Under the pieces are notes generated by a model. That model was not told where the DNA came from. It made no database searches and worked only from the letters and a program-made list of their open reading frames with translations. This document shows positions 60,832-62,357 of a DNA stretch of 64,000 nucleotides, piece by piece (position 1 is the first letter of the stretch; every line of letters starts with the position of its first letter). The position numbers and the translations under genes are program-made. Source of the stretch: Gammaproteobacteria bacterium. GTDB lineage: Bacteria; Pseudomonadota; Gammaproteobacteria; Arenicellales; Poriferihabitantaceae. Location: the NCBI GenBank assembly GCA_022822625.1, contig JAJEAV010000080.1, positions 34,258 to 98,257 on the forward strand, read 5' to 3'.

Positions 60832-60907
60832 GATGCGGAATTTGTGGCTCACATATGAGCCGCAAATCAATTTGTGACTCATAAAAGAGAAAATATGAGC
60901 CACAAAT
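60832..60907. repeat. Cluster of four 12-mer half-sites (ATTTGYGRCTCA and complement) forming two palindromes upstream of fic; includes 36-bp repeat copy 1
   Basis: ATTTGTGGCTCA (60840-60851) pairs with TGAGCCGCAAAT (60856-60867). ATTTGTGACTCA (60870-60881) pairs with TGAGCCACAAAT (60896-60907). The segment 60832-60867 recurs exactly at 62095-62130. Confidence 0.85.
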
Positions 60908-60935
60908 ATTGTAAAATTCAACCCATCTTAATCGC

Positions 60936-62063
60936 TTGAAGAATGGGACTTGTTCTGTGACTGTTTACTATCATAACGGAGAGTTTCCGCCGGATAGTCG
61001 CCTTGAATGGTCTAATTTAATTCCTCTGCTTGGTCCGACAGCGGCTGAAATTGCCCGATATGACGGTATTTTGGGAGCGATACCGAATCCATTTTTACTT
61101 CTCACCCCATTAAAAATACAGGAGGCTGTTCTTTCTTCAAGGATTGAGGGAATTCAGGCAACGGTTTTAGAAGTCCTGGAGTCTGGGAATGATGATGGGA
61201 GAGCCCCAACTTCATCTGAACGACAACTCGATATTCAAGAAGTATGGAACTACATCAATGCCATGCATAAAGCCGAGGAACTATTGAAAAAATACCCCTT
61301 GTCTCAAAGAGTAATCAAGGAGTCTCACTCCGTGTTACTGCAGGGTATTCGTGGTCACGGTAAATCTCCGGGGCAGTACCGACGCGTCCCCAACTGGATT
61401 GGACCACCAAATTGCAAAATGGATGAAGCAAAATTTGTGCCCATTGAAGCACAAAAGATTGATGATGCAATGAGCAAATGGGAAAAATACATCCATCAGG
61501 AACATCCAGATCGACTAGTGCAACTGGCCATTCTGCATGCAGAATTTGAGTCTCTATACCCGTTTTTGGATGGTAATGGACGTTTAGGGCGAATGCTGAT
61601 TCCCTTGTTTCTCTGGCAACAAGGCCTTATACAAAAGCCGGTCTTTAACATCAGTAGTTATTTTGAGGCAGATCGCGATACCTATTATGATGGACTTTTG
61701 TTAGTATCGAAAGATGGAAACTGGACCGGGTGGATAAAGTATTTCATGGAAGCACTCAGAAAACAGGCTGAATACAATTACCAAAAAGCACACGATATCC
61801 TTGGATTGTACGAAAAGACAAGGGAAGAAGTAGCGCAAAATGTGCGCTCCCAATATACAACTCCAGCATTAGACTGGATATTCAATTGCCCGGTATTTAG
61901 CGCCAGCAGTTTCAAGAATAATCAAGACATCCCGCGTGCATCAGCCAATCGAGTTTTATCTGCATTTGAGGATTTGGGTATTCTAGTGAAGCATAAACAA
62001 GCAAGGGGAAGTGTACCTGCAGTGTACGTATTTCCGAAATTGATTGAAATCATTGAGTCTTGA
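60936..62063 (+). CDS. Fic/DOC-family protein (Fic_N + Fic + C-terminal wHTH-like) whose Fic motif reads YPFLDGNGRLGR
   Basis: The Fic core FESLYPFLDGNGRLGRMLIPLFL has Tyr (codon TAC) where the catalytic His of HPFx(D/E)GNGRxxR is expected. The N-terminal inhibitory-helix motif SSRIEG, of the form (S/T)xxxE(G/N), is present. TTG start. Confidence 0.85.
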   Translation: MKNGTCSVTVYYHNGEFPPDSRLEWSNLIPLLGPTAAEIARYDGILGAIPNPFLLLTPLKIQEAVLSSRIEGIQATVLEVLESGNDDGRAPTSSERQLDIQEVWNYINAMHKAEELLKKYPLSQRVIKESHSVLLQGIRGHGKSPGQYRRVPNWIGPPNCKMDEAKFVPIEAQKIDDAMSKWEKYIHQEHPDRLVQLAILHAEFESLYPFLDGNGRLGRMLIPLFLWQQGLIQKPVFNISSYFEADRDTYYDGLLLVSKDGNWTGWIKYFMEALRKQAEYNYQKAHDILGLYEKTREEVAQNVRSQYTTPALDWIFNCPVFSASSFKNNQDIPRASANRVLSAFEDLGILVKHKQARGSVPAVYVFPKLIEIIES

Positions 62064-62094
62064 TATCAATAAGTTGATAGGCGGTCTGTTGGGA

Positions 62095-62130
62095 GATGCG
62101 GAATTTGTGGCTCACATATGAGCCGCAAAT
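62095..62130. repeat. 36-bp direct repeat copy 2 (GATGCGGAATTTGTGGCTCACATATGAGCCGCAAAT)
   Basis: Exact match to 60832-60867. It lies 31 nt after the fic stop. Confidence 0.9.
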
Positions 62131-62183
62131 ATGGCGGAAATCGATTATCGGTATTCACCCAGGAAATCGGATTGTTTCCGTAG

Positions 62184-62357
62184 CTGTGGTCTATCACCTC
62201 TGTAAGTGGCGACTTGATTCCTCTATTGGGTCACAGCGTCTCCATTGTCCGATATGATGGTATTTCGGAGGCGATGCGCATCCACATATTTACTGCTGCT
62301 TCACATAAACTGAACTTGATGGAACCCAAGGGATTCAGTGTAGAGTACATGATATAG
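62184..62357 (+). pseudogene. Decayed fragment of a second Fic N-terminal region
   Basis: The frame reads ...DLIPLLGHSVSIVRYDGISEAMRIHIF... The intact Fic reads ...NLIPLLGPTAAEIARYDGILGAIPNPF... Nucleotide similarity is visible (attcctct..ttgg; ccgatatga.ggtattt; gcgat). The frame has a one-codon indel and terminates early. Confidence 0.5.

Follow-up and report, generated by a model that had tools for sequence, protein, structure and literature searches.

Palindromes around a SoFic-type fic gene of an Arenicellales bacterium as probable operators of the protein encoded between them

Between an SDR gene (59787-60548) and leuC (from 62624), a stretch of 64,000 nucleotides of the Arenicellales contig JAJEAV010000080.1 (positions 34,258 to 98,257 of the forward strand; the whole stretch is called the window hereafter) carries a gene for a Fic protein with palindromic repeats on either side, and these palindromes and the gene between them are the subject of our analysis. 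A reading of the letters alone, made without database searches (the sequence-only reading), had described an exact 36-bp direct repeat on both sides of fic, an imperfect palindrome with a CATA centre inside this repeat, and a second palindrome with a 14-nt spacer after the upstream copy only. Each of these descriptions was confirmed. The 36-mer, GATGCGGAATTTGTGGCTCACATATGAGCCGCAAAT, occurs exactly at 60832-60867 and at 62095-62130, and no further copy with three or fewer mismatches was found in the window, nor any in 100 shuffles. It contains palindrome P1, ATTTGTGGCTCA-CATA-TGAGCCGCAAAT, with a single T/C mismatch between the arms, and its upstream copy is followed by palindrome P2, ATTTGTGACTCA-N14-TGAGCCACAAAT. 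The half-site centres are 16 bp apart in P1 and 26 bp apart in P2, and the two palindromes sit 50-117 nt 5' of the GTG at 60957. Upstream there are four half-sites, and their outer TTTGTG blocks, read from the sequence, have centres 20, 10 and 30 bp apart, which places the half-sites roughly on one face of the helix. When one mismatch was allowed, six half-sites were found at the fic locus and one elsewhere in the 64 kb (at 52741), a number of outside matches that is at chance level. Gene annotation bears out the position of the segment between SDR and leuC, and its supposed island-like character is supported by a G+C content of 41-46% across the segment vs about 51% on either side, and by a gene content that varies among relatives. 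The features of the segment are the following (homologous loci carry numbers with the letter L).

60701-60806, plus strand: remnant of a class III (NmFic-like) fic gene, with its promoter and about 13 codons (open reading frame, ORF, 60756-60806, MTLENKLNITNQV...); blastn against L003.
60832-60867, no strand: first copy of the 36-mer, with P1 at 60840-60867; exact repeat search and palindrome search.
60870-60907, no strand: palindrome P2; arms and spacer length kept in L003, L006 and L012.
60912-60917, plus strand: -10-like hexamer TAAAAT, 4 nt past the right arm of P2; alignment with relatives.
60957-62063, plus strand: SoFic-type fic gene, encoding Fic_N, Fic and a SoFic-like C-terminal winged helix; Pfam, PADLOC and PDB.
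61557-61559, plus strand: TAC codon (Tyr-208) at the position of the catalytic His; His in 13 of 13 aligned homologues.
61935-61952, plus strand: RASANR codons (residues 334-339), predicted start of the recognition helix; AlphaFold model and covariation.
62095-62130, no strand: second copy of the 36-mer, with P1' at 62103-62130 and no P2'; repeat search and relatives.
62131-62357, plus strand: what is left of the leader and 5' coding region of a second, decayed sofic gene, best kept at 62214-62297; blastn and tblastn.
62298-62494, no strand: tail of the module, also found 3' of the sofic module in Ca. Poriferihabitans (L006).

Read from GTG 60957, the fic product has 368 amino acids, and the longest ORF, which begins at TTG 60936, has 375. 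The GTG is also the start chosen by gene callers for a database protein from a metagenome assembly (P0001) that is identical to the window Fic. Pfam recognizes Fic_N (E 8e-20) and Fic (E 8e-17), with SoFic-like_C at 20.8 bits, under its 27-bit cut-off. The PADLOC SoFic model matches residues 12-374 (E 8.8e-106), and PDB structures of S. oneidensis SoFic align with residues 10-372 at about 30% identity (E 8e-31). By these matches the gene is classed as a SoFic-type class II Fic with a C-terminal winged helix. The N-terminal inhibitory-helix motif (S/T)xxxE(G/N) is present as SSRIEG (residues 67-72) and is invariant in the alignment. The catalytic motif HxFx(D/E)GNGRxxR is altered, the window reading YPFLDGNGRLGR with Tyr in place of the catalytic His, and the H194A variant of EcSofic, the E. 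coli protein, is non-toxic (PMC12249575). With Tyr for the catalytic His, the window protein is probably enzymatically dead, though a member of SoFic by descent; its winged helix is intact, and it may survive solely as a DNA binder. The Fic domain was poorly modelled by AlphaFold (mean predicted local distance difference test score, pLDDT, 59.6), and the C-terminal domain alone was used. There the winged helix reaches a pLDDT of 75-94 overall and its recognition helix (residues 334-346) 84-94, with residues 335 and 338 opening the third helix of this confidently modelled domain.

The sequence downstream of the second 36-mer had been likened to the Fic N-terminus and explained by a tandem array of fic cassettes, the second of them decaying. 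Homology to the 5' region of fic was recovered by both searches made. The stretch 62214-62297 aligns with 61017-61102 (88 nt at 75% identity, E 5e-8 in a search of the entire window) and is the only non-self match of the window in blastn, and tblastn with the Fic N-terminus finds the remnant with E values of 1e-3 in the window, 1e-5 in L003 and 3e-6 in L009. The nearest relatives of the Fic protein, 79-85% identical, come from metagenome-assembled genomes of Gammaproteobacteria and Arenicellales, including Ca. Poriferihabitans, and their arrangement supports the proposed cassettes: L003 and L009 (with Fic proteins in this 79-85% range) share the adjacency of sofic and leuC, arrays on both sides and a decayed second fic 5' region, and L012 (82% Fic identity) has the start of a second cassette after its downstream array. 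Since the arrangement is common to these relatives, the duplication is old and predates the divergence of the window, L003 and L009.

Palindromes P1 and P2 are both kept downstream in L003, L006 and L012, and L009 keeps a P2-like palindrome downstream, with only the right arm left upstream, at the end of the contig. In the window the right arm of the downstream P1 is joined straight to the sequence that normally follows P2, a 40-bp deletion, and the downstream P2 is thus missing because of a deletion between two right arms that are themselves direct repeats. The two copies of the 36-mer are 100% identical, and the sequences that flank them are identical at 12 of 40 and 29 of 60 positions. Furthermore, the right arm of P1 reads TGAGCCGCAAAT in both window copies and TGAGACACAAGG in both copies of L003. 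An identical 36-mer set in flanks of about 30-50% identity, together with arms that agree within but not between genomes, points to gene conversion (concerted evolution).

Other parts of the segment have eroded as well. Upstream, 60701-60792 aligns with L003 3209-3309 (75%, E 2e-16, blastn), where the class III fic gene is intact (3272-3877, 201 amino acids, with a Pfam Fic match); the remaining 570 bp or so have been deleted from the window. The window locus is consequently a decaying one, with Tyr for His in the Fic protein, a deleted class III fic and a lost downstream P2. On the far side, the tail of the module aligns with L006 in two blocks (62436-62494 with 6362-6421, 77%, E 2e-8; 62298-62408 with 6252-6360, 66%, E 1e-7; both blastn). 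The L006 module lies in a different genomic context, with the left boundary of homology at P2. In two other loci, the intact gene is bordered by pieces of another sofic gene that differs from it (L017:4098-4560 and L053:3001-3099), the piece in L017 having its own recognition helix and its own variant of the array. These flanking fragments suggest frequent replacement of cassettes, and together with the second context of the module in Ca. Poriferihabitans they make cassette turnover seem common.

Homologues define the motif more closely. The set comprised 80 genome loci from many phyla, with Fic proteins of 52-83% identity, and a palindrome was scored when its arms matched at 9 of 10 positions or better. 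The density of palindromes was 13.8 per kb just 3' of the gene, 3.6 per kb just 5' of it and 1.5 per kb elsewhere, an enrichment of about nine-fold right after the gene. A downstream palindrome was present in 60 of the 80 loci; one just before the gene was present in 25, only about 13 of these being of the TTG...CAA type. A fixed layout was evident in 32 non-redundant loci, namely P1 (spacer of 4 nt), P2 (spacer of 14 or 15 nt) and P3 (spacer of 4 nt), in which the final codons and the stop codon contribute TTTTGA to the left arm of P1. The half-site consensus is TTTG-NNNN-TCA, in which the outer TTTG and inner TCA are conserved and the four central bases vary between loci, being alike among the palindromes of any one locus. 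In L023 the unit CGGACAAACCGGCGTTGTCGCTCACGGATGA is present in many tandem copies after fic (from about 4212).

A scan of metagenomes with the pattern TTTGYGRCTCA-N{4,14}-TGAGNCRCAAA returned at least 120 loci. Among the matches listed, the 14-nt spacer accounted for 56 of 120, the largest cluster of neighbours was a SoFic-like Fic gene with the motif about 25 nt past its stop codon, and Fic was present at 24 of the 36 loci with enough flanking sequence, at 22 of them within 200 nt. A dispersed repeat of the repetitive extragenic palindromic (REP) or bacterial interspersed mosaic element (BIME) kind, or a miniature inverted-repeat transposable element (MITE), was rejected: the half-sites in the 64 kb are confined to the fic locus, bar the one chance match, and elsewhere they are tied to SoFic, so that the palindromes behave like operators and not like a genome-wide REP element. 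Two side observations concern matches away from Fic. Orphan palindromes with the 14-nt spacer lie beside defence-type genes, some of them bearing a helix-turn-helix (HTH), as in L143/L149 (8 nt past the stop codon of a 405-aa AAA_16 ATPase), L115/L138 and L150 (AbiEi_2); they may be what remains after loss of a sofic gene, or sites that other proteins use. A form with a 6-nt spacer, TTTGCGACTCA-N6-TGAGTCGCAAA, accounts for 18 of the matches listed (L097, L099, L104, L106, L111, L120, L125 and L127 among them). It recurs several times within a contig with no Fic nearby (for example, CEPX01194888.1 and CEPX01120830.1) and may be an unrelated dispersed repeat.

Covariation between protein and palindrome indicates which protein is the likely binder. 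In 64 loci with a registered P2, an Arg before the Thr/Ser of the helix goes with an inner CCA instead of TCA in both arms (counts [[50,1],[3,10]], Fisher p 2e-8), and an Arg, not Lys or Gln, two residues later goes with C/T instead of G at position 6 of the half-site (counts [[32,0],[7,25]], p 1.7e-11). In window numbering these are residues 335 (inner T/C) and 338 (position 6). Of the roughly 370 columns of the alignment, none scores higher than these two for half-site positions 8 and 6 (z 12.9 and 8.8, respectively), and they come second for position 9. When Fic domains more than 90% identical were collapsed the associations persisted (p 5e-6 and 5e-10); single-linkage collapse at 75% Fic-domain identity left too few clusters for the covariation test. 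The pair L028 and L063 illustrates the pattern, since their Fic domains are 87% identical, yet they differ both in K/R and in TGTGGCTCA/TGTCGATCA.

Two Fic proteins with a winged helix are known to bind their own promoters. The structurally related CccR gave a footprint on AGATAATCAT-N26-ATGATAATCT, across the -35 and -10 elements of its own promoter, and represses itself (PMC9755527). The SoFic dimer of S. oneidensis likewise binds the promoter of its own gene, with the 100 bp beside the ATG bound best, although no motif is named there (bioRxiv 10.64898/2026.07.09.737422). In our reading of the published sequence, that promoter probe has five copies of ATGTCGAT, of which the best-bound fragment contains three. 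The distal fragment F3 of the same promoter contains palindromes of a second type, GTGTATAGATA...TATCTATACAC and TTTGTATAGA...TCTATACA (Table S2, bioRxiv 10.64898/2026.07.09.737422). The E. coli locus, located by means of EcSofic residues 50-358 rebuilt from the PDB alignment, has 11 copies of TGTCGAT within 420 bp 5' of the gene and a single further one in the 7 kb of the locus. This upstream region (L212:2552-2980) consists of 5.4 copies of a 70-bp tandem repeat with TGTCGAT half-sites in inverted pairs, and is likely an operator array of EcSofic, of which our literature search found no earlier report. TGTCGAT is the core of one variant of the half-site in the SoFic family of the window protein, and the helix motif KRQTAS is common to S. 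oneidensis SoFic and EcSofic.

Taken together, these patterns make it likely, in our judgment, that the palindromes are cognate operators of the SoFic-type protein encoded between them, and that they occur twice as part of an old tandem duplication whose second copy has decayed. The sequence-only reading, in essence right in its interpretation, had left the half-site to an unidentified regulator or recombinase and had suggested the winged helix of Fic itself as a candidate for binding. A regulator is indeed favoured, and given the covariation and the published autobinders it is probably SoFic itself that binds through its winged helix. The binding that we infer here would involve a SoFic dimer whose recognition helix (RASANR, 334-339) reads the TTTG-NNNN-TCA half-sites, with one dimer on P1 and another on P2. 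P2, the form that is kept across relatives and dominant among the metagenome matches listed, is likely the main operator. It ends 4 nt before the conserved -10-like box, which lies about 40 nt 5' of the GTG, so its occupancy would repress fic, as with CccR, and would keep a toxic AMP-transferase low. In relatives the box reads TAAAGT, TAGAAT or TACAAT (pattern TAnnnT kept) and lies 5' of intact genes, which makes TAAAAT at 60912-60917 a putative promoter element of fic. P2 itself was considered as a sigma-70 promoter (TTGTGG-N16-TATGAG) and rejected as unconvincing, the final T of the -10 hexamer being absent.

The history of the locus would follow from the same scheme. The unit of linker, P1, P2, leader and sofic would have been duplicated in tandem in the ancestor of the Arenicellales clade of the window, and the second sofic would then have decayed to a 5' stub, with P2 also lost in the window genome. 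Later gene conversion would have homogenised the two copies of P1 and produced the exact 36-mer. An ancient duplication of site and gene together would thus explain why the site is present twice, and the downstream P1' would be the operator of a dead second cassette.

Several observations weigh against this interpretation. The box at 60912-60917 was not called by a consensus promoter scan of the window, which leaves the evidence for a -10 element weak. Identity between the window protein and the SoFic, EcSofic and CccR proteins that have been studied is only about 30%. The codons of the winged helix lie about 100-200 bp from the 3' array, so part of the covariation could reflect a co-inherited recombining block, and several other columns of the C-terminal domain also score high. 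Among the metagenome matches listed, 12 of the 36 assessable sites have no Fic nearby. The array of most homologues is located 3' of the gene, overlapping the fic stop codon, and not at the promoter; autorepression may consequently not be its general role, nor its role here.

Another account centres on this location, and we hold it to be possible, though less probable. Throughout the SoFic family, the winged helix of SoFic would read the P1-P2-P3 array, which begins inside the stop codon, as a portable control element, and the two-residue recognition code would be a simple specificity switch that can be re-targeted. Each of the two window arrays would then belong to the 3' end of one cassette in a series, and the Tyr-208 protein would survive as a pure regulator. 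Genes in the same direction 3' of sofic arrays encode PglZ (7), HI0074-type HEPN (7), type III Res (5) and MmeI-like type IIG (4-5) proteins, as well as MADS components and HsdS, and these defence genes often begin just 10-70 nt past P3. The pattern suggests that the 3' array may control read-through or the next gene. SoFic could in one such role gate transcription into a downstream PglZ, MmeI-like, type III Res, HEPN or further sofic gene; in another it could be parked inactive on DNA until infection disturbs that DNA.

It is improbable that the palindromes belong to a small mobile cassette of a MITE-, REP- or attC-like kind, as its termini or as the sites of its recombination, in which case the repeat-gene-repeat layout would stem from insertion or cassette exchange and not from regulation. 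The repeats do flank the gene, sofic fragments flank the intact genes of L017 and L053, orphan arrays occur in defence-type neighbourhoods, and the array-sofic-array-tail module has another context in Ca. Poriferihabitans, where it lies beside an ORF remnant (L006:4644-4982, directly 5' of the module) that may derive from an insertion sequence, its beginning (MRFEEA...SQEEAA) resembling a transposase N-terminus. However, the ORF list has no recombinase or transposase adjoining the window locus, the motif was not found in the other 62 kb of the window, and the arrays keep a fixed register with the stop codon across phyla and co-vary with the recognition helix. An integron attC site was rejected specifically, since the cores RYYYAAC and GTTRRRY are absent from the 36-mer and P2 and no integrase was found among the ORFs at 58.5-64 kb. 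Note that operators could passively serve as homology patches for cassette exchange, and to that extent the two readings are compatible.

It is very unlikely that the palindromes act as RNA hairpins of the fic transcript, whether as a terminator, a 3' stabiliser, a processing site or a type III-like RNA antitoxin. If transcribed, the region would fold well (minimum free energy -39 kcal/mol, z -4.2). Most homologues have their arrays directly past the stop codon, and from locus to locus changes in one arm are compensated in the other. Strong folding is trivial for any palindrome, however, and the mismatches within 123 palindromes carry no mark of RNA: of 231, 36 were G:U-compatible in the sense strand and 47 in the antisense strand, about 38 being expected for each, and 148 were of other kinds. 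The palindromes have no match in an Rfam search, and an RNA stem would need neither the single arm variant per locus nor its tracking of the recognition-helix residues. The RNA hairpin was rejected on the mismatch statistics and the Rfam result. No T-run follows the stems, and an intrinsic terminator was likewise rejected: the terminator scan calls none of P1, P2 and P1', and ATGGCGG follows P1'. ToxI-like repeats of type III RNA antitoxins were set aside as the elements are inverted and not tandem direct repeats, in addition to lacking an RNA-type covariation bias and an Rfam match. A small ORF running through the palindromes, ATG/GTG followed by AGCCACAAA (M-S-H-K), was also rejected, its frame varying in length and content between loci. 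Finally, a 47-aa ORF downstream of EcSofic, AS1, is reported to counteract the toxicity of EcSofic (PMC12249575), but AS1 does not correspond to the palindrome array, since downstream of the E. coli gene there is only a hairpin and a convergent gene, with no TGTCGAT array, and the array is upstream.

Least likely of all, a different, trans-encoded regulator of defence islands would bind the palindromes, with SoFic merely a frequent neighbour, an idea that draws on the third of assessable metagenome sites (among the matches listed) where Fic is absent and AAA ATPases, AbiEi and T5orf172-type genes adjoin the motif, including a winged-helix AbiEi and an AAA ATPase with an HTH-like C-terminal tail, but that runs counter to covariation with the recognition helix of SoFic itself across many phyla and to the experimental binding of CccR and SoFic to their own promoters.

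The PDB entry 7cb8, which we presume to be CccR, is a distant match of the window protein (E 4e-23). CccR of Yersinia pseudotuberculosis shares with it the Fic domain and a C-terminal HTH, and the CccR dimer binds an inverted repeat with a long spacer at its own promoter (PMC9755527), its regulatory and toxic activities being separable (PMC9755527). The window gene likewise has inverted repeats close to its own start, and these are kept in L003, L006 and L012. The two systems differ in that the CccR operator is a single pair of sites with an N26 spacer, located at the promoter, whereas in the family of the window two or three palindromes of TTTG-NNNN-TCA half-sites, with 4 or 14 nt between the arms, form an array that mostly lies 3' of the gene; furthermore, CccR is an effector of the type VI secretion system and the window protein a SoFic-type protein of defence islands. 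The single-gene anti-phage proteins SoFic of S. oneidensis and EcSofic of E. coli have the same architecture as the window protein (bioRxiv 10.64898/2026.07.09.737422; PMC12249575), and their upstream regions carry repeated ATGTCGAT palindromes, related to the TGTCGAT-core variant of the window family. Their sites are upstream only, however, and the window protein, at about 30% identity, has Tyr for the catalytic His. The WYL regulators BrxR and CapW offer another likeness, as DNA-binding proteins with inverted repeats that head varied sets of defence genes (PMC9122601). They join a winged HTH to WYL, whereas the window family joins Fic to a winged helix; by analogy, there is a possibility that SoFic regulates downstream defence genes in the manner of BrxR and CapW. 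Controller (C) proteins of restriction-modification systems are small stand-alone HTH proteins with C-box operators upstream of the C and R genes. The likeness with them, for which no membership is claimed, lies in a few palindromic operators matched to a cognate protein that tunes a potentially lethal enzyme.

The element is thus most likely the self-operator of a Fic-winged-helix protein, a kind that is already known. In the literature that could be searched, none of the motif, the array architecture, the 3' placement and the recognition code is described. Among single-gene anti-phage systems SoFic is widespread, and as to its restraint prior work had established only that a 100-bp promoter fragment is bound, leaving the operator undefined. 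We propose here the half-site TTTG-NNNN-TCA, palindromes with spacers of 4 and 14/15 nt, and a recognition code of two residues. The usual placement of the sites, across the stop codon and 5' of other defence genes, was unexpected. If the proposal is correct, SoFic operators would become predictable from sequence, and the enzymology of a toxin would be linked to transcriptional control within defence islands. The result for the window itself is modest, namely a defence module next to leuC that is being eroded in an Arenicellales bacterium, probably one associated with sponges.

Two minor groups of features complete the description of the window. Towards leuC, a perfect TATAAT (62484-62489) lies inside the palindrome TTGCCATATAATTGGCAA, and a 25-nt inverted repeat (62499-62523 and 62566-62590), common to L003 and L009, lies just 5' of the gene. 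These elements at 62484-62590 are candidates for a promoter or leader structure of leuC and may act as such. Far from the locus, two tRNA genes on the minus strand (6821-6894 and 8901-8985) are the sole matches in the window at the Rfam gathering threshold.

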